Source of the DNA: Acidimicrobiia bacterium
GTDB taxonomy: Bacteria; Actinomycetota; Acidimicrobiia; Spongiisociales; UBA11373
Direction: 5' to 3'
NCBI GenBank assembly: GCA_036478235.1
Contig: JAZGDZ010000040.1
Span: 12,841-76,840, forward strand
DNA: 64,000 nucleotides
Numbering within the stretch: position 1 is the stretch's first letter; every line of letters starts with the position of its first letter. The translations under genes and the position numbers were made by a program. Positions 2,460 through 48,775 of this stretch are shown here, piece by piece. The notes under the pieces are model-generated. The model was not told the origin of the DNA and did not search any database. It saw only the letters and a program-made list of their open reading frames with translations.

Positions 2460-3491
2460 TTAGAGGCGGCCCGCGGTCGTCGTCAGGATGTCCTGGAGCA
2501 TGTCGAACTCCTCCAGGCACCGACCCGAGCCGATCACCACCGAGTGCAGCGGCCGATCAGAGGTGACGACCGGGGTGCCGGTCTCGTTGGCGATCCGAAC
2601 ATCGAGGCCGCGCAGCAACGCGCCGCCACCGGTGAGGACGATCCCGCGTTCCATGGCATCCGCCGAGAGCTCCGGCGGGGTCTTGTCGAGGCAGTACTTG
2701 ACGGCGTCGACCATCCCCTGGACCGGCTCCTCGATCGCCTCGCGCACCTCGGCCGCCGTGATGATGACGGTCTTGGGGAGGCCGGTGACGAGGTCACGTC
2801 CCCGAATCTCCGCATTTGGCTCGTCACTGAAGGGCCAAGCCGAGCCGATGGCCATCTTGAGCTGCTCCGCTGTGCGGTCCCCCAGCAGGAGGTTGTACTC
2901 CTTCTTCACGAAGTCGACGATCGACTCGTCGATCTCGTCACCGGCGATGCGAGAAGTGCGGGCGACAACGATGCCCCCGAGGGAGATCACCGCCACCTCG
3001 GTCGTGCCTCCGCCGATATCGATTATGACGGAGCCGGCCGGCTCGTGGACCGGGAGGTCCACACCGATCGCCGCAGCCATCGGCTCCTCAATCGTGTAGG
3101 CGCGACGGGCGCCGGCGTGATAGGCCGCCTCCTCCACCGCGCGGCGCTCCACGCCGGTGATCCCGGACGGCACGCACACGATGATGCGGGGACGGGCCCA
3201 ACGACGCGGCTGCACCTTCTTGATGAAGTAGCGCAGCATCTTTTCGGTGATGTCGAAGTCGGCAATGACACCGTCGCGCAGCGGCCGAATCGCCTGGATG
3301 TGAGACGGAGTGCGACCGATCATCCGTTTGGCCTCGAGGCCCACCGCCAACGCGGAGTTGTCGCGCGTGTTGATGGCCACCACCGACGGTTCGTTGAGCA
3401 CGATGCCTTGTCCGCGGACGTAGACGAGCGTGTTCGCCGTTCCGAGGTCGATCGCCATGTCACGGGTCGCCAGCGACATCAATGAGGACAT
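2460..3491 (-). CDS. mreB: Rod shape-determining protein MreB (actin homologue)
   Basis: 343 aa with MSSLMSLATRDMAIDLGTANTLVYV...DIGGGTTEVAVISLGGIV, the actin/Hsp70 fold motifs of MreB. Confidence 0.92.
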   Translation of the reverse strand: MSSLMSLATRDMAIDLGTANTLVYVRGQGIVLNEPSVVAINTRDNSALAVGLEAKRMIGRTPSHIQAIRPLRDGVIADFDITEKMLRYFIKKVQPRRWARPRIIVCVPSGITGVERRAVEEAAYHAGARRAYTIEEPMAAAIGVDLPVHEPAGSVIIDIGGGTTEVAVISLGGIVVARTSRIAGDEIDESIVDFVKKEYNLLLGDRTAEQLKMAIGSAWPFSDEPNAEIRGRDLVTGLPKTVIITAAEVREAIEEPVQGMVDAVKYCLDKTPPELSADAMERGIVLTGGGALLRGLDVRIANETGTPVVTSDRPLHSVVIGSGRCLEEFDMLQDILTTTAGRL

Positions 3492-3538
3492 GAGGAAGAG
3501 CCCCTATAGAATCTGGGGAAGTGTAACCACTGCGGTGG

Positions 3539-3937
3539 CTATGCGAAGAAAAGCCGGATTTCGCGCTCCGCGCTGTCGAGCGAATCCGATCCGTGCACGA
3601 TGTTCTCCGTGATGACGGTGCCGAAGTCGCCGCGAATCGTTCCGGAAAGTGCCTCCCCGGGGTCGGTTGGACCCATCAGCGACCGGACCACGGACACGGC
3701 GTCCGGGCCGGACCATTCAATGGCCACGACCGGGCCGCTCGTGATGAAGGACACGAGGTCGGCGAAAAACGACTTGTCGGTGTGCTCGGCGTAGTGGCGC
3801 CCGGCGAGATCCTCATCGATGGTGAGCATCCGCATCCGCTCCAGGCGCAGGCCCTCGTTTTCGAAGCGGCCGATCACCTCGCCGACCAACCCGCGCCGAA
3901 CACCATCGGGCTTGACCATCACGAAGGTGTGTTCCAT
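3539..3937 (-). CDS. ndk: Nucleoside diphosphate kinase
   Basis: [26 protein letters not shown]...NIVHGSDS. The ORF track extends to 3985 (MTDDYSP...), but the conserved NDK N-terminus begins at MEHTF. Confidence 0.9.
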
Positions 3938-4082: not shown

Positions 4083-5363
4083 TCAGAGCCCCAGCGCGGT
4101 CCGCGCCTCCCCGGCCACGTAGAGCGAGCCGGTCACGAGCACAGGGGCCCCCGATTCCCGCGCCGCGGCGACGGCTTCGGCCACCGATCCGTGGGCCTCG
4201 GTCGGCAAGCCGAGGCTCCGTCCTGCCACGGCTGCGACTTCGCCGGCGTCCCGGGCTCGCCCGGACCGGGCCGCCGCCGCATGGACCCGTTCCACCAGGC
4301 CGTCGAGATGTTCGAGCATGCTCTCAACGTCCTTGTCGGCCATGACACCCAATACCAGGACCCACCGCTTGGAAGGGAACTCGAGCCGTAGCGAACCGGC
4401 CAACGCGGCCATCGCATCCGAATTGTGAGCACCATCGATCATCAGCAATGGGTCATCGTCCAGGATCTCCATCCGGCCGGGAGTCGTGATCGTTGCTGCC
4501 GCCTCGCGCACACCGGCCTCATCGAGGGAGCGGCCGAACAGGGCCTCCACCGACGCCACCGCGACCGCAAAGTTGTCTACCTGATGACGGCCCCGGACTC
4601 GCAGTTCGACGTCGCTGTACTCGTCGAAGGCCGACCGCAGATCAAAGGCCCAGCCTCTCGAAGCCCAGCGCAGGTCGGTGACCTCGAACTCGACACCTTG
4701 CCGAAACCACCGGCCGGCGCGTTCTGCGGCTATGTGTTCTGCCCTCTCCAGGGCCTCCGGGGGCAGATCCCCCGTTACCAGCGCAGCGCCCTCGTCGAGT
4801 ATCGCCAGCTTCTCCCCGGCGATTTCTCCCAGCGAGTCTCCGAGGTACTCGGTGTGCTCGAGCCCGATAGTCGTCACGACCGCCACCTCCGAGTCCGCTG
4901 CGTTGGTGGCATCGAGCCTTCCGCCGAGCCCGACCTCGATCACGGCCACATCGACCGACCTCTCGGCGAACCAGGAGTGGGCCATCGCCGCGGTCAGCTC
5001 GAAGTACGTGGCACCATCGCCGGTGCGCTCCGCGAGCATGTCGGCGATGGGGGCGATCTCGGAGATGACCGCGGCGAGCTCGTCGCCTGTCATGACCTGC
5101 AGCCCGTACTCGTATCGTTCTTCGACACGTTGCAGGTGGGGTGATGTAAACGTCCCCGGGGTCAAGCCGTGGCCCGATAGCAATTGGGCCGTCATCCTCA
5201 CCGCACTGGTCTTTCCGTTGGTCCCGGCGACATGGACGATCGGATAGCCGAGTTCGGGGTTCGCCAGCGCGTCGAGCAGCGCGGTGATCCTGTCCAGACC
5301 CGGCTTGAGGCCCCGGCCGATATGGCGATCGAGGAAGGCGATGGCTGCTGTGTAGTCCGTCGT
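4083..5363 (-). CDS. folC: Folylpolyglutamate synthase/dihydrofolate synthase
   Basis: Mur-ligase family. The ORF-track start (5201) is a GTG downstream of the P-loop. Hand translation upstream in frame gives ...YTAAIAFLDRHIGRGLKPGLDRITALLDALANPELGYPIVHVAGTNGKTS, open up to the valS TAG at 5364-5366 with no ATG/GTG/TTG. The 5' boundary is therefore uncertain. Confidence 0.75.
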   Translation of the reverse strand, partial: TTDYTAAIAFLDRHIGRGLKPGLDRITALLDALANPELGYPIVHVAGTNGKTSAVRMTAQLLSGHGLTPGTFTSPHLQRVEERYEYGLQVMTGDELAAVISEIAPIADMLAERTGDGATYFELTAAMAHSWFAERSVDVAVIEVGLGGRLDATNAADSEVAVVTTIGLEHTEYLGDSLGEIAGEKLAILDEGAALVTGDLPPEALERAEHIAAERAGRWFRQGVEFEVTDLRWASRGWAFDLRSAFDEYSDVELRVRGRHQVDNFAVAVASVEALFGRSLDEAGVREAAATITTPGRMEILDDDPLLMIDGAHNSDAMAALAGSLRLEFPSKRWVLVLGVMADKDVESMLEHLDGLVERVHAAAARSGRARDAGEVAAVAGRSLGLPTEAHGSVAEAVAAARESGAPVLVTGSLYVAGEARTALGL

Positions 5364-8215: not shown

Positions 8216-8580
8216 AGAGCGTCCGCAAATAGGCGGACGCTCTTTCGCGATGTTGATGGCTCTTCGCCGTACGGCTCATCGCTGGTTTGGCTACGGCTTT
8301 CGGGATTTGGCTCCGTATTTGGCTGCGGCGTTCGGGTCCTATCCGGCCCCGAGACGCCTCCGCATGGATGAGCCGCCCTGCGGGCGGCGCTCCGTTCTAC
8401 GTTCGAGTCCTGCTCGGCCTGGAAACGCCTCCGCATGGTGGATCCGCCCTTCGGGCGGACAGCGTTCTACCTGTTCGGCCCCGAAGAGCCTCCGCATGGT
8501 TGTGCCGCCTTGTAGGCGACGCAGTGCTCTACTGCCCGAGGGCCCCAGCCCCAGGCCGCCGAGTCCGCGCCTATCGGCGC
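8216..8580. repeat. Array of modular intergenic repeats. A hairpin module (AGAGCGTCCGC-loop-GCGGACGCTCT, 8216-8243), then an ATGGCTCTTCGCCGTACGGCTCATCGCTGG module, then three tandem ~60-bp units (8338-8527) each with a GCCGCCC-TGC-GGGCGGC hairpin, then a GGCCGCCGAGTCCGCGCCT module
   Basis: Direct reading. The same modules recur at 12048-12179, 36378-36600, 40323-40670 (reverse complement), 50955-51085 and 51923-52092. Confidence 0.9.
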
Positions 8581-10495: not shown

Positions 10496-11952
10496 TCGTC
10501 GACCTCCGCGGACACCCCCCCGTCAGTGGGGCGGTCCTTTTGATTGATTTGGTTGCTTGATTCGGCCGCGTCCCTCGCCTCGCCCGACCGCTCTCCGTCC
10601 CCGTCGGCCTCATCGGCCGCTCCCAGCGGTGCGGGCTCGTCGATTTCGATCTCCAGATCGATCTCGTTGCCGCCGACGTCGACCGGAACCGCCAGCTCGA
10701 GGACACGGTCGACAGCCTTGCGGCGTAGGATATCACCGGATAGAGCCTGTTCTCGATCACCTTCGGCGAGCGCGCTGCGATACTCCTCCACCTCCATCCC
10801 CGACACGCCGGCCAGCTGAGTGATCGCCTCTTCCACTTCTGCGTCATCGACCTCGATCTTCTCGAATTCAGCCACGGCTTCGAGCATGACCCGCGTCTTG
10901 AGGTTGAGTTCGGCCTGTGACCTGAGATCGGCGAGGAACGATTCTTGATCCTGCCCGGTGAGTGCCAGGTACTGGCCGAATTCGACCTCCTGTTGCTCGA
11001 GCCGGTGAGCGAAGCGATGAAAGACTGAGTCCATCTCCACCTGGAGCAGTGCCTCCGGAATGGTCAGATCGAGGTCGTCGAGCAACTCCTGGAGCAGCAG
11101 TCGCTCGTAGTCGGCGCGGAGACCGGAAGTGCGAATCCTGATCAGCTGCTCCTCCAACTCCCGCCTCATCTCGGTGGCGGTCTCGAACTCGGTCATGTCG
11201 TCGACCCACTCGTCGGTGAGCTCGGGAAGCCGCTTCGCCTTCACCTGTTTGACCAGCACGCGCACACTGACCTCGGTCCCGCCGTCGTCGCCGAACGACG
11301 GCGGAAGAGTCGTGACGAACTCCTCGATTTGCCCGGCGGCCTTGCCGCGAAGCGCGTCGTCCATGCCGTTCAGAAACATCCCCGATCCGACCTCGAACAG
11401 CATGTCGTTGGCCGATCCGGCGGCGAACTCCTCGCCGTCCTTGGAGGTCGCCACGTCGACGATGGCGAAGTCACCGTCGAACGCCTCACGGTCCACGTCT
11501 TCGAGCTCGGCGAACTGGTTGCGTATGCGCTCGATCTGATCCTCGACGGCGGCGTCGTCCACAGGAGGGGCGTTCAACTCCACCTTGCGCTTCCGGTACT
11601 TCGGAAGCTTCTTGACGGTCGGCCACAGGGTGACGAGAACATCGACCTCGACGCCCCCATCCCGATCCCTGATGTCTTCGAGCTTCGGCATGACCGCCGG
11701 GGCGAGTTCTGTCTCGGCAATGGCGTCCGTGAGCACGGCCGGAAGGGCATCGTCGATTGCCTCTCGCCGCAGGGTGTCCGCCCCCACCGCTGATTCGATC
11801 ACCTTGAGCGGCGCCCTGCCGGGGCGGAAGCCCTTGATCTTGACCTCACCGGCGAGCCGTCGCGCCGCCGTCTTCTTGGCGGCGTCGATCGCAGCCTCTT
11901 CGATGGTCAGCGTGAGGATCCGCTCGAACGGACCGGCCTTTCGCACCTTCAC
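10492..11952 (-). CDS. tig: Trigger factor
   Basis: PPIase chaperone architecture with an acidic C-terminal tail. Start assigned to GTG 11952, preceded by GGAGGAG. The ORF-track N-terminal extension covers a repeat element. Confidence 0.85.
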
Positions 11953-12047
11953 TTCTGCTCCTCCATCGAACACAACAGAGCGAGACGGCGCCCATGCCGC
12001 CTCGCCGAATCTCATCGCCCTTCACCATACGGCCCATCACCAGTCTG

Positions 12048-12179
12048 GCTCCGACGCTCGGGATCTGGCTCCGAGACGCCTCCGCACGGTGGTGCCGCCC
12101 CAAGAGGCGGCGCCATATTCTACGACCCGGGTCCCGGCCCAGGCCGCCGAGTCCACGCCTGTCGGCGTGTGCTCTTCGG
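12048..12179. repeat. Copy of the modular intergenic repeat (GGCTCCG...GAGACGCCTCCGCACGG...GCCGCCGAGTCCACGCCTGTCGGCG)
   Basis: Sequence similarity to 8280-8580. Confidence 0.8.
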
Positions 12180-12256
12180 GGTGACCGAGGGGATTTGAAC
12201 CCCCGACATCCGGGACCACAACCCGGCGCTCTAACCTGACTGAGCTACGGCCACCA
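12180..12256 (-). tRNA. tRNA-His (GTG)
   Basis: Reverse complement GGTGGCCGTAGCTCAGTCAGGTTAGAGCGCCGGGTTGTGGTCCCGG...GGTTCAAATCCCCTCGGTCACC. Anticodon loop TTGTGGT. Extra 5' G typical of tRNA-His. Confidence 0.85.
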
Positions 12257-12270
12257 TGACAGAGAGCCTG

Positions 12271-12343
12271 TGCCCCCGGAAGGATTCGAACCTCCGACCA
12301 AGAGCTTAGAAGGCTCCTGCTCTGTCCACTGAGCTACGGGGGC
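12271..12343 (-). tRNA. tRNA-Arg (TCT)
   Basis: Reverse complement GCCCCCGTAGCTCAGTGGACAGAGCAGGAGCCTTCTAAGCTCTTGGTCGGAGGTTCGAATCCTTCCGGGGGCA. Confidence 0.8.
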
Positions 12344-12442: not shown

Positions 12443-12521
12443 ACAGCGATCGGGAGATTAGCTCGGCACCTGCACGTACCAACTCAACGCCAGTCTCCAG
12501 CCTCCAATGCGGGGTTGGCCG

Positions 12522-13361
12522 CTATTTGGGTGGTCCGGCGGCGACTCGATCGAAGGCTTCGTCGTAACTGCCTCGTCCCCAGTCGATGAGTTCAACCCAC
12601 CAGGTCGCACCCGCCTGCCTGTAACTCTCGACCTTTTCTCCGTCGTCGGGTTGGGATACGTCGGCCCAGGCAATGTCGTAGGGCTGGTCAGTGTCTCTCT
12701 CGGTCTCGATGGTTCCACGGAAGGAGGCCAGGTCATTGGGGGTCCATTCTTTACCCCAAGGATCAGAAGGACCGATCCAACCATCCCAGCGTGCTGCCCG
12801 GCGGAGGGCTGCGGGGCTGTCTCCGCCAACCCATATCGGAACCCGAGGCTTCTGCACGAGGTTGAGATCGACTGCTACCCCAGCCACCTCGTAATGAGTG
12901 CCTTTGTGGTTGACCTCATCGCCGGACCACAGTCGGGTCACGACATCCAAACTTTCGTCGAGCATTTCGCCGCGAACGCGTGGGTTGCCGGATTCGCCGA
13001 ACACCTCGAACTCGTCGGCAAAGAAACCGATGCCGACTCCCAACGTCATCCTGCCCTCCGAAAGAACATCGAGACTCGACACGGTGGTTGCGAGAGTCTG
13101 CGGTTTGTAGCGAGGAACGATCGCTACGCACGTACCGATCCTGATGGTCTTCGTGGCAGCAGAGACCGCACTCAGAACGACCCAAGGGTCATAGACCGAC
13201 GGAACGCCGTCCCGCCAGAAAAACAAAGAGTCCCACGTGAAAAAGCCGTCCCAGCCGGTTTCCTCAGCGGTCCGCGCTAGGGAAGCAGCGTCGCGTGGAT
13301 GACCAAACCTCTCGGTGTTCGGACAACAAACAGCGAACTTCAATCGCGGTGCGTCAGACAT
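12522..13361 (-). CDS. LLM-class F420-dependent oxidoreductase (luciferase-like monooxygenase family)
   Basis: TIM-barrel LLM motifs (MSDAPRLKFAVCCP..., GIGFFADEFEVFG). The window also carries fbiA/cofE. Start taken at ATG 13361. Confidence 0.75.
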   Translation of the reverse strand: MSDAPRLKFAVCCPNTERFGHPRDAASLARTAEETGWDGFFTWDSLFFWRDGVPSVYDPWVVLSAVSAATKTIRIGTCVAIVPRYKPQTLATTVSSLDVLSEGRMTLGVGIGFFADEFEVFGESGNPRVRGEMLDESLDVVTRLWSGDEVNHKGTHYEVAGVAVDLNLVQKPRVPIWVGGDSPAALRRAARWDGWIGPSDPWGKEWTPNDLASFRGTIETERDTDQPYDIAWADVSQPDDGEKVESYRQAGATWWVELIDWGRGSYDEAFDRVAAGPPK

Positions 13362-13668
13362 CGCCGTGCCAATCTTATCCCCCGCCAGACACCCGATCGG
13401 GCTCGCCATGTGCCAGGAAGACAACCCTTCTCCGCGTCGGGCGTGACCCTTCTCCGCGACAGCCAACGCCTCGCGATGCTGCTCCACTACGAAGAACTAG
13501 CACGAGCCGCCAGATAGGAGGGAAGCAACCCGGAACCCGTAGCGTGACCGACCCGTTCGAGACCGAGCAGGCTCGAACGGGGTCGGACCCCCCAACCAAT
13601 CGAGCTCCGCTCGATTGACTCCCCTCGAGCGGTTCGAGACCGGGTAGGACTCGAACCCGCGAGATGAG

Positions 13669-13742
13669 TCGGGCTGGCCGGATTTGAACCGGCGACCCCC
13701 TGCTCCCAAAGCAGGTGCGCTGCCAAGCTGCGCCACAGCCCG
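13669..13742 (-). tRNA. tRNA-Pro (TGG)
   Basis: Reverse complement CGGGCTGTGGCGCAGCTTGGCAGCGCACCTGCTTTGGGAGCAGGGGGTCGCCGGTTCAAATCCGGCCAGCCCGA. Confidence 0.8.
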
Positions 13743-13764: not shown

Positions 13765-13835
13765 CTCGTGCGGGCGGTGGGATTCGAACCTTCTCCGCGC
13801 CACCGGCGAGCCGCGATGCTCGCTCCCTCAAGAGA
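13765..13835 (-). pseudogene. Degenerate duplicate of the tRNA-Leu 3' half (T-arm and acceptor 3' strand) fused to a shared GGAGCGAGCATCGCGG...CGCGGAGAAGG module
   Basis: Reverse complement ...GGGAGCGAGCATCGCGGCTCGCCGGTGGCGCGGAGAAGGTTCGAATCCCACCGCCCGCACGAG. The last 24 nt equal the 3' end of tRNA-Leu at 13937-13960. No 5' half. Confidence 0.6.
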
Positions 13836-13936
13836 GTGAGGACGAGAGTAGCTGGGGATGAGGGGAGTGGGGCGTTGTGGCGAGGGGAGCTTCGAGGCCG
13901 AGCAGGACTCGAAGTTCTCCGACCTCGTATGCGTCC

Positions 13937-14025
13937 TGGTGCGGGCGGTGGGATTCGAACCCACAGCGGGTCTGAGACCCACCGGATCCTAAGTCCGGCG
14001 CCTATGCCGGTTCGGCTACGCCCGC
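13937..14025 (-). tRNA. tRNA-Leu (TAG), class II with a long variable arm, CCA encoded
   Basis: Reverse complement GCGGGCGTAGCCGAACCGGCATAGGCGCCGGACTTAGGATCCGGTGGGTCTCAGACCCGCTGTGGGTTCGAATCCCACCGCCCGCACCA. Confidence 0.85.
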
Positions 14026-14084
14026 GCAGATCCCAGGGTATCGGCAGACGATCTCACCGTTTGCCAAAACGCTATTCTCGCCGC

Positions 14085-14157
14085 GGGTCGCTAGCTCAAC
14101 CTGGCAGAGCAACGGACTCTTAATCCGCAGGTTCGGGGTTCGAATCCCCGGCGACCC
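14085..14157 (+). tRNA. tRNA-Lys (CTT)
   Basis: GGGTCGCTAGCTCAACCTGGCAGAGCAACGGACTCTTAATCCGCAGGTTCGGGGTTCGAATCCCCGGCGACCCA. Confidence 0.8.
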
Positions 14158-14264
14158 ACCGGCTCGCGAACGAATCCCGCGGCACATCGCCGCCGACTGG
14201 CGGCGACGCTTGCTCCCCACCAATCGACGAGAACCTCATCCCCCGCGGCTCGCATCGGCGCCTC

Positions 14265-14331
14265 CGGACGGAGCGAGCATCGCGGATCGCGAGAACGCGG
14301 AGAAGGTTCGAATCCCCGGCGACCCACCGGC
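14265..14331 (+). pseudogene. Duplicate of the tRNA-Lys 3' half preceded by the same GGAGCGAGCATCGCGG...CGCGGAGAAGG module
   Basis: cggagcgagcatcgcggatcgcgagaacgcggagaaggttcgaatccccggcgacccaccggctcgcgaacgaat. About 65 nt are repeated directly from 14130-14198. Confidence 0.6.
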
Positions 14332-14363
14332 TCGCGAACGAATTCCGCGGCACATCGCCGCCG

Positions 14364-14389
14364 ACTGGAGACTGAGGACTGGTGACTCT
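14364..14389. repeat. Heptamer tandem repeat GACTGGA GACTGAG GACTGGT GACTC
   Basis: Direct reading. Adjacent to the USP gene stop. Confidence 0.8.
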
Positions 14390-40322: not shown

Positions 40323-40670
40323 GCCAGGAGTCTGCTGAGTGATGCCGTTGCTCAGATCGTGGAACACAGCGCCGCCCGCAGGGCGGCTCAATCATGCGGA
40401 GGCGCTTCGGGGCCGAGCAGGACCCGAACGCCGCAGCCAAACCGGGCCAGGCGCGCCAGTCGCCAGGATCTCGGGTTCGCCACTCCTCGCGCAGGAATGG
40501 CGGGACCGTGGACACCGCTAGTGGCGATGTAGATCACAGCGCCGCCCGCAGGGCGGCACGTCCATGCGGAGGTGCTTCGGGGTCGAGCAGGACTCGAACG
40601 CCGCAGCCAAATACGTAGCCAAATACGGAGCCAAATCTGGACGTCGAGATGAGTGACATGTATTGCTCAG
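40323..40670. mobile_element. MITE-like non-autonomous element (~350 bp) with ~17-bp imperfect terminal inverted repeats (GCCAGGAGTCTGCTGAGT ... TGCTCAGCGGGCTCCCAG) and an internal tandem duplication of a ~130-bp hairpin unit
   Basis: Termini read directly. Interior is the reverse complement of the 8280-8420 modules. A shorter derivative lies at 51923-52092. Confidence 0.7.
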
Positions 40671-46507: not shown

Positions 46508-46673
46508 TCGGGGTCGGGGCGGTAGGCGGATTCGAGCAACATCACCGGGATCCCGTCCACGACCGGGAAGTGCAGTCCGCACCCGGTGCAAACGAGATCC
46601 CCCTCGCCCGCTTCGAGCGTGGAACGGCACTCGATGCATCGCAGGATCTCGAGCAACTCCTCAGGAACCGCCA
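46504..46673 (-). CDS. Trm112-like small zinc-ribbon protein (DUF343), 56 aa, not in the ORF track
   Basis: Hand translation (GTG 46673) gives MAVPEELLEILRCIECRSTLEAGEGDLVCTGCGLHFPVVDGIPVMLLESAYRPDPE*. ATGA overlap with the downstream gene. Confidence 0.7.
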
Positions 46674-48013
46674 CTCTCGACCTCCTCGATCAGGGACCGG
46701 ACCCGGGAGATCAGTTCGTCGAGGCCCTTGCGGTCTGCCGCCTCGACGTTCAGCCGGAGTACCGGCTCCGTGTTCGAAGGCCTCAGGTTGAACCACTTGT
46801 CGCCCAGATCGACCGTGATGCCGTCGAGCCTATCGCCACCCGAGAACACCTTGGCGACCCTTTCGATCTCGACTTCGGGGTCGGCAACTCTCATGTTGAT
46901 CTCTCCGGACTGGACATACGGTTCGAATCCCCGGCGCAGTTCCGAAAGTGGGGTCCCGGCCTCGGAGAGCAGGCGCATCATCACCAGCATGGTGAGCAGC
47001 CCGGAGTCTGCCCCATAGTTGTCCCGGTAGTAATAGTGGCCGCTGTGCTCACCGCCGAAGACCGCCCCCGTTTCCCGCATGATCGCCTTGATGTACGAGT
47101 GCCCGACCCGGGTCCGAACCGGCAAACCGCCGGCGGCCTTCACGGCCTCGGGCACTGCCCGCGAGCAGATCAGATTGTGGACGATGCTCTCCCCGGGGTG
47201 ATCCTTCAGGAACCAGTCGGCAACCATGGCGGTCACGGTGCTGCCGGGGAGGGCGACGCCCGTGTCGTCGATGAAGAACGCTCGATCGGCGTCGCCGTCG
47301 AAGGCGACCCCTAGGTCGGGTTTCTCGCGGCTCATGAGCGTCGAGAGATCGATGAGGTTCTCGGGCCGCATCGGATCCGGATGGTGATGCGGGAAGGTCC
47401 CGTCCGGCTCGAGGTAGAGGCCGATCAGGTCGGCGTCGATCAGGTCGAAGAGTGACGGCACCGCGACCCCGGCGACGCCGTTCCCGCCGTCTACCGCCAC
47501 GCGGAGACCGGCTATCGCCCCGGCTCCGGACACATCGATCAGGTGCTGCACATACGAATCGAGGAGCGAGACAGGAGCGGTTTCTCCACCGGAGAGGCGC
47601 GGGGGCTCGTCGGCGGCGAGCGCTCTGACCTCACCGAGGCCTGAATCTGCTCCGACGGGAGCGGCACCCGACAGACACAGCTTGATGCCGTTGTGACCCT
47701 TGGGGTTGTGAGAAGCCGTGATCATGGCGCCCGGCTCGTCCAGATGCCCGGCGGCGAAGTAGACCATGTCCGTCGTGATCATCCCGAGGTCGTCCACCGC
47801 TACCCCGGCGGCGTGGATTCCGTCGATGAGCGCCGTGGCCAGGATGGGCGATGACAGTCTGGCGTCGCGGCCGACGGCGATGCGTTCGGCCCCGGCGAAT
47901 CGGGCGAAGGCGTGGCCGATCCGGCGCGCCGCCGCCTCGTCGAGCTGGTCCGGTACGACACCGCGCACGTCGTACGCCTTGAAGATCGCGTCGAGGTCCA
48001 TGAATCGCGACAT
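46661..48013 (-). CDS. manB: Phosphomannomutase/phosphoglucomutase
   Basis: MSRFMDLDAIFKAYDVRG... with TASHNP active-site Ser and GGEHSGH. Confidence 0.92.
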   Translation of the reverse strand: MSRFMDLDAIFKAYDVRGVVPDQLDEAAARRIGHAFARFAGAERIAVGRDARLSSPILATALIDGIHAAGVAVDDLGMITTDMVYFAAGHLDEPGAMITASHNPKGHNGIKLCLSGAAPVGADSGLGEVRALAADEPPRLSGGETAPVSLLDSYVQHLIDVSGAGAIAGLRVAVDGGNGVAGVAVPSLFDLIDADLIGLYLEPDGTFPHHHPDPMRPENLIDLSTLMSREKPDLGVAFDGDADRAFFIDDTGVALPGSTVTAMVADWFLKDHPGESIVHNLICSRAVPEAVKAAGGLPVRTRVGHSYIKAIMRETGAVFGGEHSGHYYYRDNYGADSGLLTMLVMMRLLSEAGTPLSELRRGFEPYVQSGEINMRVADPEVEIERVAKVFSGGDRLDGITVDLGDKWFNLRPSNTEPVLRLNVEAADRKGLDELISRVRSLIEEVESGGS

Positions 48014-48052
48014 TCTACGGGTCGCAACCCCATCCCTAGACTTCACCGGCCG

Positions 48053-48775
48053 ATGCCCGATTCTCCCGCCATCAGTGCCGTGATCCCGGTCCACAACGAG
48101 GCGAGCTTCATCGGCGGCGCACTCCCCCGTCTCGTCGCAGCCCTCGAGAGCGTCGACCGGTCGTTCGAGGTCATCGTGGCCGAGAACGGGTCGAGCGACG
48201 ACACCGCCCGCATGGCGACCGAGGCGACGGCCGGTGACGACCGGATCAGCGTGATGCGCCTCGCCGAGGCAGATTACGGCGCCGCCATGCGGGCCGGGTT
48301 TCTCGCCGCGAGCGGAGACTGGGTGGTCAACTTCGACATTGACTACTTCTCGGCAGAGTTCCTCAGGGCGGGATTCGAAGTGGCGGATTCGGCGGACCTG
48401 ATCCTCGCCTCCAAGCGGGTGCACGGCGCCGACGATCGCAGATCGGCCTTGCGGCGGCTCGGCACATGGGGGTTCACCCTCATGGTTCGGCTGCTCCTCC
48501 GGTCGAAGGTGACGGACACCCACGGCATGAAGATGGTGCGGAGGTCGGTAGTGGATCGGGTGGTGCCTTCCGTGCGCTCGACCGAGGACCTGTTCGATAC
48601 CGAGCTCGTCGTGCGTGCCGAGCGTCAGGGCTTTCGCATCGCCGAGGTTCCTGCCGTTGTCGAAGAGATGCGGACGGCGCGCTCCTCACTCATCGGCCGG
48701 GTCCCGCGCACCGTTTGGGGACTGCTGCGAATCCGGAGGCAGCTGCGCAAGGAAGCGCGGTCAGGCGACCTCTAA
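48053..48775 (+). CDS. GT2 polyprenyl-phosphate glycosyltransferase (Ppm1/GtrB-like dolichyl-phosphate mannose synthase family)
   Basis: ISAVIPVHNEASFIG...IVAENGSSDDT...DIDY are GT-A DxD motifs. 240 aa soluble catalytic domain. Confidence 0.8.
   Translation: MPDSPAISAVIPVHNEASFIGGALPRLVAALESVDRSFEVIVAENGSSDDTARMATEATAGDDRISVMRLAEADYGAAMRAGFLAASGDWVVNFDIDYFSAEFLRAGFEVADSADLILASKRVHGADDRRSALRRLGTWGFTLMVRLLLRSKVTDTHGMKMVRRSVVDRVVPSVRSTEDLFDTELVVRAERQGFRIAEVPAVVEEMRTARSSLIGRVPRTVWGLLRIRRQLRKEARSGDL

Follow-up and report, generated by a model that had tools for sequence, protein, structure and literature searches.

Introduction

A tRNA gene (tDNA) is split when a mobile element integrates into it and is restored by that element, and a displaced fragment of the original gene marks the far end of the insert (PMC4383910). 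Searches of the Islander type accept such inserts only within a length range of 2–200 kb (PMC4383910). The 64-kb stretch of DNA analyzed here (the window), which is from an uncultured Acidimicrobiia bacterium, displays a related arrangement on a far smaller scale. Three non-coding inserts of about 170 nt are located behind the neighbouring tRNA-Leu, tRNA-Lys and tRNA-Pro genes. On balance, each of these genes appears to carry a copy of a gene-less integrative mini-element of about 170 nt, termed here a unit. The T-loop, where the duplicated tRNA sequences begin, is reportedly one of the classic sublocations of integration in tRNA genes, along with the anticodon loop and the 3′ end, a division said to be that of Williams in 2002.

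The units have several properties in common with the tRNA islands and prophages of tyrosine integrases. The tDNA is intact and appears to be regenerated by element-borne sequence, and a cognate 3′ fragment in the same orientation is found at the far end. The identity extends from the T-loop (the G52-G53/T-loop boundary in three cases) to the tRNA 3′ end (discriminator +1). There are signs of tandem site use, and empty sites are present in relatives. However the units are only 168–171 nt long (243 nt behind tRNA-Pro), with an interval of 145–170 nt, compared with 2–200 kb for islands. The interval contains no integrase gene and no gene of any kind, and essentially the same unit is found at three tRNA species side by side.

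The nearest named concept is that of cis-mobilizable elements (CIMEs), i.e. att-flanked elements without an integrase gene, as defined for streptococcal integrative and conjugative elements, or ICEs (PMC6323972). Common to CIMEs and the units are attL/attR flanks (a putative att function in the units), the lack of integration and transfer genes, a presumed dependence on the recombinase of another element, and tandem accretion. The known CIMEs are kilobases long, have cargo genes and have an identified parental ICE. The units in contrast carry no cargo and are about the size of an attP site, and neither a parent nor an integrase was identified for them.

Non-coding integron cassettes and attC-only circles are also tiny, gene-less recombination-site units with a fixed site and a tyrosine recombinase that acts in trans, and here as there a gene unit is joined exactly at the site. 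Unlike cassettes, the units show by eye no attC-like imperfect palindrome or GTTRRRY core and no intI or attI was found, although no dedicated scan was made; in addition the target is a tRNA T-loop and the tRNA 3′ end is duplicated. Miniature inverted-repeat transposable elements (MITEs) and the palindrome-associated transposable elements (PATEs) derived from IS200/IS605 resemble the units in that they are short, non-autonomous, non-coding and hairpin-bearing. The units however have no terminal inverted repeats and are seen in very low copy number, and they show a tRNA-specific duplication of 23–64 nt where MITEs and PATEs have a short fixed target duplication or none.

The tRNA genes and their displaced 3′ fragments

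Six tRNA genes and one tmRNA gene are found in the window (ARAGORN, Infernal). An earlier note on this DNA, made from the sequence alone, described a tRNA-Leu(TAG) gene on the minus strand and a tRNA-Lys(CTT) gene on the plus strand. Both are intact by ARAGORN and Rfam/Infernal, at positions 13937–14025 (minus strand, 61.4 bits) and 14085–14160 (plus strand, 65.2 bits), respectively. The intact tRNA-Pro(TGG) gene is at positions 13668–13742 on the minus strand (ARAGORN; Infernal, 65.6 bits).

A displaced fragment of tRNA-Leu that spans the T-loop to the 3′ end is at positions 13765–13790 (minus strand). In a repeat search this segment matches positions 13936–13961, with 96% identity over 26 nt. 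The match is exact over 23 nt, which start at G52-G53 of the T-stem and end one base beyond the discriminator. The fragment terminates in GCAcga, i.e. it has no CCA. A leader of the native tRNA-Pro type follows it, and the distance to tRNA-Pro is 22 nt.

Behind tRNA-Lys, a second copy of the T-loop-to-3′-end sequence together with 40 nt of Lys-type trailer is at positions 14305–14368 (plus strand). The repeat search aligns it with positions 14137–14200 over 64 nt at 98% identity. The earlier note had placed this direct repeat, with a length of about 65 nt, at 14130–14198 and 14289–14357. The distal copy breaks off in a hairpin loop, at a GACTGG microhomology. Rather than a single long att block, the 64-nt duplication is more plausibly a displaced fragment to which the beginning of a second, truncated unit is attached.

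Both copies are downstream of their tRNA gene and in the same orientation, as had been described; they start however at 144–146 nt beyond the tRNA 3′ ends and not at 110–130 nt. ARAGORN and Infernal (E ≤ 10) call no tRNA at positions 13765–13870 or 14226–14368, and the duplicates are thus partial copies, as proposed, and not paralogues. A functional tRNA paralogue or a whole-gene pseudogene was also rejected on the grounds that no cloverleaf is detected and that the sequence upstream of the Leu and Lys copies is a common module, termed M.

The identity starts at the same T-stem/T-loop position (GG|TTCGAATCC) in three cases, i.e. Leu, Lys, and the tRNA-Lys of a relative from another genus (contig L147, described below). 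In two cases the identity block stops one base past the discriminator (23 nt). An intact tDNA with a cognate 3′ fragment downstream in the same orientation is present in all three; for tRNA-Pro the fragment match is not significant. The order of intact tRNA, insert and displaced fragment, from the same T-loop position in both tRNAs, bears out the attL/attR-type topology that the earlier note had seen.

In tRNA-Lys the T-loop 11-mer GGTTCGAATCC is followed by CCGGCG, and an exact copy with the same continuation is also found at positions 46920–46936 (plus strand), inside an open reading frame (ORF) of the phosphoglucomutase family (46661–48523). There is no M nearby and this match is taken as a chance occurrence.

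Anatomy of the units and module M

Alignment shows that the three units of the window are colinear along the strand of each tRNA. The order is T-loop to tRNA 3′ end, a trailer of about 12–26 nt, a GC-rich hairpin, a C-rich spacer, and M. After the end of M (...CGGAGAAGG) the sequence GG/TTCGAATCC and the tRNA's own 3′ strand are repeated, and native flanking DNA follows. The spacing from T-loop to T-loop is 171 nt in the Leu unit, 168 nt in the Lys unit and 243 nt in the Pro unit, the last consisting of 166 nt plus a tandem hairpin duplication of 77 nt.

In the Leu unit (minus strand) the 22-nt trailer and hairpin H1 (CTTCGAGTCCTGCTCGGCCTCGAAG, 13890–13914) occupy positions 13890–13936, and the C-rich spacer and the first copy of M (M1) occupy positions 13787–13889. 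In the Lys unit (plus strand) the trailer, a hairpin HK (TCGCCGCCgactGGCGGCGA, 14187–14206) and the sequence GCTTGCTCCCC are at positions 14161–14225, and the second copy (M2) is at 14226–14304. In the Pro unit (minus strand) the trailer and two H1-type hairpins (13631–13657 and 13547–13585) are at positions 13528–13667. The Lys hairpin is of a different type from the Leu/Pro hairpin (TTCGAGTCCTGCTCGGCCTCGAA). The GC-rich hairpin is probably the terminator of the tRNA.

M is about 80 nt long, and an nhmmer profile finds exactly three copies in the 64 kb: M1 at 13787–13868 (minus strand, E = 5.5e-21), M2 at 14229–14309 (plus strand, E = 1e-19) and M3, behind tRNA-Pro, at 13446–13527 (minus strand, E = 3.3e-18). 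M2 is inverted relative to M1 because tRNA-Leu and tRNA-Lys are divergent; the inverted repeats were also found by the repeat search. The earlier note had recognized a module shared by the Leu and Lys copies, although with a length of only about 30 nt, and had missed the copy behind tRNA-Pro, which a check for other tRNAs followed by the module brings to light. Its view that one element type was used at two tRNAs is strengthened by this third copy and by a fourth behind tRNA-Lys of L147, where the unit has the same length of 171 nt.

The Leu and Lys copies are identical at GGAGCGAGCATCGCGG (13811–13826, minus strand; 14270–14285, plus strand). The motif CGCGGAGAAGGKT is found four times in the window, compared with 0.36 occurrences expected by chance. 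Invariant blocks of M1 in the alignments are GGAGCGAGCATCGC and CGGAGAAGG, and M can be written as GGAGC(G)AGCATCGC ... CGGAGAAGG.

The units contain no ORF and no Pfam match, and two of the M copies are out of frame. Folding of M gives z-scores of +0.4 to +1.3 relative to shuffled sequences, the alifold consensus of four copies is weak and displays little covariation, and Rfam gives no match. M is thus not a tRNA-like or otherwise structured RNA, which favors a role at the DNA level. Also rejected was M as a promoter of the sigma-70 type, as no such sites are present. The units are not MITEs: their ends are not inverted repeats, and the duplications, of 23–26 and 64 nt, coincide with the tRNA 3′ end.

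Within the Leu unit the trailer/H1 junction GGTCGGAGAACTTCGAGTCC (13905–13924) repeats the M-end/T-loop junction CGCGGAGAAGGTTCGAATCC (13780–13799). In L147 the corresponding left motif, at positions 3389–3396, is inverted (TCTCCG). To judge from these repeats, two older junctions may have come together in tandem to form the unit, or the junction motif may be a protein-binding site.

The Leu/Pro hairpin TTCGAGTCCTGCTCGGCCTCGAA also occurs as the first of the hairpins in R, a family of intergenic repeats of about 75–105 nt that are dispersed in the window. Family R displays a T-loop-like start (GTTCGAGTCC), a GTTCGAGTCCTGCTCGGCCCCGAA hairpin, GCCTCCGCATGG and a GCCGCCCTGCGGGCGGC hairpin, and forms tandem arrays. 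It is present at positions 8299–8539 (three tandem units), 12042–12127, 40351–40452 and 40522–40630; its first hairpin alone is at 13890–13914, 13631–13657 and 13547–13585. M itself is not a part of family R, to which only the H1 hairpin belongs.

Support for the locus, and occupied and empty sites in relatives

Homologues of the proteins of the window bear the name Acidimicrobiia. The whole locus is present in a second, independent metagenome contig (GCA_044345325.1) with 99.995% identity to the window. A contig of an independent metagenome-assembled genome (GCA_030624285.1) with 99.7% identity has the Lys unit and ends inside tRNA-Leu. Together with the analogous unit in L147, these rule out an assembly artefact.

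Contigs of relatives were obtained through genes neighbouring the locus. In L149, whose trigger factor is 71% identical to that of the window, the genes are ordered as USP (universal stress protein), Lys (minus), Leu (plus), Pro (plus), Gly, Arg, His and tig (trigger factor), which is the order and orientation of the window. The spacers however are 46, 47 and 97 nt long, compared with 241, 194 and 1225 nt in the window. L149 has no M, no tRNA fragments and no gene for the oxidoreductase described below, thus the Lys, Leu and Pro sites are all empty. The comparison of loci that the earlier note had recommended therefore yields empty sites in a relative with the same gene order. Given an identity of only about 71% in the trigger factor, they are not a strain-level polymorphism.

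The tRNA-Leu gene of the window encodes CCA (GCAcca). The tRNA-Leu genes of L149, L147 and a further relative, L121, do not. The flank of the displaced Leu fragment is of the native type (GCAcg...) and can be aligned to the spacer between Leu and Pro in L149 and in L121. As the distal fragment has the native flank and the proximal copy has the CCA, the former resembles the original 3′ end and the latter an imported sequence. In the best explanation, the proximal T-loop-to-3′-end sequence (13939–13961) is thus a replacement copy supplied by the element.

L147 (GCA_029263095.1) belongs to another genus, and its trigger factor is 70% identical to that of the window. A unit is found behind its tRNA-Lys (3297–3371) and consists of a 27-nt trailer, an H1 hairpin, M (GGAGCGAGCATCGC ... 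GGTCGGAGAAGG) and a 23-nt copy of the Lys T-loop-to-3′-end sequence (3520–3542). The 57 nt after the displaced Lys fragment align with a native tRNA-Gly leader. The spacing is 171 nt, with AGCATCG at offset 142 and CGGAGAA at offset 165, as in the Leu unit of the window, and the offset of H1 also agrees between the two. The trailer and H1 are homologous between these two units, which are at different tRNA species, and are thus part of the unit and not native tRNA flank. The constant length, the shared blocks and offsets, and the occurrence in L147 show a unit that is discrete, of fixed size and portable between tRNA species and genera.

M has a patchy distribution among relatives: it is present in the window and in L147, and no clear copy is found in L121, L133 or L149. 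A decayed M may be present in the Lys-Gly spacer of L121. Behind the tRNA-Leu of L147 there is a Lys-type hairpin and the 5′ half of M, after which synteny breaks. The trailer and HK of the window's Lys unit are homologous to the trailers of the L147 tRNA-Leu and the L121 tRNA-Lys.

The Pro-Leu-Lys block of L121, a relative with a 79% identical trigger factor, is inverted relative to both the window and L149. Inverted repeats of about 25 nt (GATTAGTCC..GTCGTTAGTC, 11096–11120 and 11612–11648) lie on either side of the L121 block, and in the window a 10-nt inverted repeat CTGGAGACTG (14364–14374 and 12489–12499) flanks the tRNA block including the oxidoreductase gene. In L133 the 5′ part of tRNA-Lys and 17 nt of its leader are duplicated (3225–3317 and 4444–4537), at 1.1 kb from the intact gene. 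This duplication stops exactly after the T-loop (GGTTCGAATCC|TAACC), and the 1.1-kb insert has two small ORFs and no integrase gene. By its boundaries, L133 would represent a second kind of T-loop-bounded event at tRNA-Lys. The closest relatives provide no view of the cluster: a contig with a 95% identical RdgB breaks off or diverges after the USP gene, and one with a 96% identical trigger factor starts upstream of tig.

The tRNA-Pro unit and the LLM oxidoreductase gene

The M3 region, at positions 13424–13527 (minus strand, nhmmer), has two tandem CGCGGAGAAGGGT ends separated by a GTCACGCCCGA-type sequence. The second M3 end is joined directly to a gene unit at positions 12511–13425 (minus strand), which encodes a luciferase-like monooxygenase (LLM) class oxidoreductase (Bac_luciferase). 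The coding sequence is at about 12522–13361. No gene other than the LLM gene is annotated in the interval bounded by the USP gene on one side and the Gly-Arg-His tRNA array on the other. The public annotation of the gene (11796–12323 in GCA_044345325.1, i.e. 12522–13049 in the window) has a chain length of only 175 aa; the reading frame and homologues of 278–288 aa point to a start near 13361.

The LLM gene is not present at the cognate locus in relatives, and copies that are 85–96% identical are found in different contexts in other metagenomes. In the closest copy, L130, homology to the window stops at position 13425, which is the M-end junction. From these contexts the LLM/F420-type gene appears to behave like a portable single-gene unit. 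Among the copies (L124–L126, L130 and L131) homology extends to at most about 65 nt before the start codon and to 11 nt past the stop codon, and in L130 and L131 the gene is flanked by its own direct repeats. In L124 a 90% identical copy is 5 kb from a tyrosine integrase gene. The LLM loci of L124–L126 contain no M and no tRNA gene. The idea that M belongs natively to the region upstream of the LLM gene was rejected, since LLM copies elsewhere are without M.

The 3′ end of the LLM unit, CAAATAGCGGCCAACCC (12508–12528, minus strand, over the stop codon), resembles the tRNA-Pro T-loop-to-3′-end sequence CAAATCCGGCCAGCCC, with a shuffling p of about 0.015. This likeness is probably due to chance because the same sequence is found in LLM copies away from any tRNA gene.

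Discussion

The likeliest mechanism is site-specific recombination by a tyrosine integrase that acts in trans. A recombinase encoded elsewhere would recognize the T-arm core GG-TTCGAAT-CC, which is common to many tRNAs. An attP-like site, consisting of M-end, T-loop, tRNA 3′ end and trailer, would recombine with the T-loop of a chromosomal tRNA gene. The incoming copy of the T-loop, the 3′ strand of the T-stem and the acceptor 3′ strand would keep the tRNA gene intact, and in tRNA-Leu it would add the CCA. The conserved M blocks, the trailer blocks and the CGGAGA motif near the hairpin may be protein-binding sites of the arm type. The unit would then be an integrated attP without cargo, like a cis-mobilizable element shrunk to its att arms. 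The empty tRNA-Leu site is predicted to read ...CCGCCCGCAcgagtggctggcacaatg, and the junction of a circle or tandem ...CGCGGAGAAGGTTCGAATCCCACCGCCCGCACCAGGACGC. If the site was used more than once, this may explain the truncated second unit behind tRNA-Lys, the two M-ends behind tRNA-Pro, and the LLM gene joined exactly at the M-end. The suggestion of the earlier note that a very small integrating element was used at different tRNAs is the best-supported reading, on account of the constant unit length, the portability and the empty sites in a relative. Its alternative, that the repeats were left by excised islands, does not fit, because precise excision would take the duplication away.

Several observations weigh against a mobile unit. 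No integrase, transposase or other recombinase gene is found in the 64-kb window and none is linked to M anywhere. A check for a cognate tyrosine integrase, which had been proposed, is therefore negative for these 64 kb, and we infer the enzyme. Beyond the window and L147, scans of genomes, metagenomes and viruses gave only chance matches to M, with the limit that the genome and metagenome patterns are too strict to catch the L147 copy. The pattern for the genome collection was AGCATCGCGN{8,18}CGCGGAGAAGG; at least 118 stretches matched and no homologous locus was among the matches retrieved. A metagenome scan with the same pattern plus KT gave four chance matches. Nothing but chance matches came from three viral scans, and two of these matches fell within AT-rich tRNA-Gln genes of phages; blastn of the units against phages and plasmids gave tRNA-Pro matches only. 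A phmmer search of the translated Leu unit, for spurious ORFs annotated over other copies, against 1.84 billion representative proteins found one irrelevant repeat protein. No clear tRNA-Pro fragment follows M3, and a Pro-like match in the GTCACGCCCGA region has a p of about 0.19. As a substrate for recombination, a circle of 171 bp is very small. A new tRNA specificity needs a new tRNA 3′ end, which a simple crossover in a foreign T-loop does not give. It is the proximal and not the distal Lys trailer that resembles the L121 Lys trailer, thus the Lys case needs an extra event. Finally, all three M copies of the window are within 900 nt, as a local duplication would also give, and there are no more in the 64 kb.

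This last point bears on the alternative that survives best, although it is unlikely: the units would be scars of local rearrangement without a mobile element, formed by segmental duplication, unequal recombination or template switching between near-identical T-loops, and inherited vertically. The inversion of the Pro-Leu-Lys block between relatives and the inverted repeats that flank the L121 block are consistent with a locus prone to rearrangement, as are the GACTGG microhomology at the end of the distal Lys copy and the tandem duplications of 77 nt and 22 nt behind tRNA-Pro. However, a 171-nt unit with the same blocks and offsets is at a different tRNA type in L147, and at a trigger factor identity of only 70% neutral intergenic DNA would not stay alignable. 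Local rearrangement also does not readily account for the same T-loop boundary nucleotide in three independent cases, for duplications that end at the tRNA 3′ end in two cases, or for the clean empty sites of L149.

It is improbable that the units are decayed multi-kilobase islands or prophages, once equipped with an integrase, in which internal deletions removed everything between the att arms. The attL/attR-like topology would be expected of such remnants. The genes after the 5′ half of M behind the L147 tRNA-Leu are non-syntenic, as if they were cargo, and the proximity of an LLM copy to an integrase gene in L124 points the same way. Independent deletions however would not converge on lengths of 171, 168, 166 and 171 nt with blocks at identical offsets, and the LLM loci L124–L126 have neither M nor a tRNA gene.

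There is little probability that the unit is a host-selected tRNA trailer, i.e. a terminator, processing signal, promoter of the next gene or small RNA that is kept by selection and not by mobility. The unit has discrete invariant blocks that different genera share, it always directly follows a tRNA gene in the same orientation, and in three of four cases (tRNA-Pro, the LLM gene and the L147 tRNA-Gly) a co-oriented gene follows within 22–65 nt. Yet the unit is absent from L149 and has no clear copy in L121, where the same tRNAs function without it, and the copy behind tRNA-Lys faces a convergent gene. Folding no better than that of shuffled sequences, the lack of covariation, and the absence of a promoter-like site and of an Rfam family also argue against this.

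Delocalized crRNAs guide type V-K CRISPR-associated transposons to tRNA genes, and M is immediately 5′ of a 23-nt tRNA match in two genomes; nevertheless it is very improbable that M is a scaffold similar to crRNA or omega-RNA with the tRNA fragment as guide for an RNA-guided nuclease or transposase, as genes for TnpB, IscB or Cas12 and Tn7-like genes are absent from the 64 kb, M has no stable or conserved RNA structure and no Rfam match, the Lys match is 64 nt long and M3 has no tRNA match.

If the mini-element is mobile, the units may tentatively be proposed as a new class of mobile DNA: gene-less elements of attP size (about 170 bp) that hop between tRNA genes via the near-universal T-loop as crossover core, each with a matching tRNA 3′ end and terminator, that are mobilized in trans by a recombinase encoded elsewhere and at which gene units such as the LLM gene could land. 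Searches of the Islander type discard such candidates because they are shorter than 2 kb and have no integrase gene (PMC4383910).

If the units are not mobile, they amount to no more than a well-documented case of att-like scars, located in a tRNA cluster that is prone to rearrangement, in an uncultured lineage of Acidimicrobiia. If they are mobile, they would be among the smallest known integrative elements, an att site that propagates by itself, and one that island-finding programs miss by design, as these require an integrase and more than 2 kb. The trailers, terminators and even the encoded CCA ends of tRNA genes would then be replaceable by foreign DNA, and the locus would show how tRNA clusters become hotspots for the capture of single genes.

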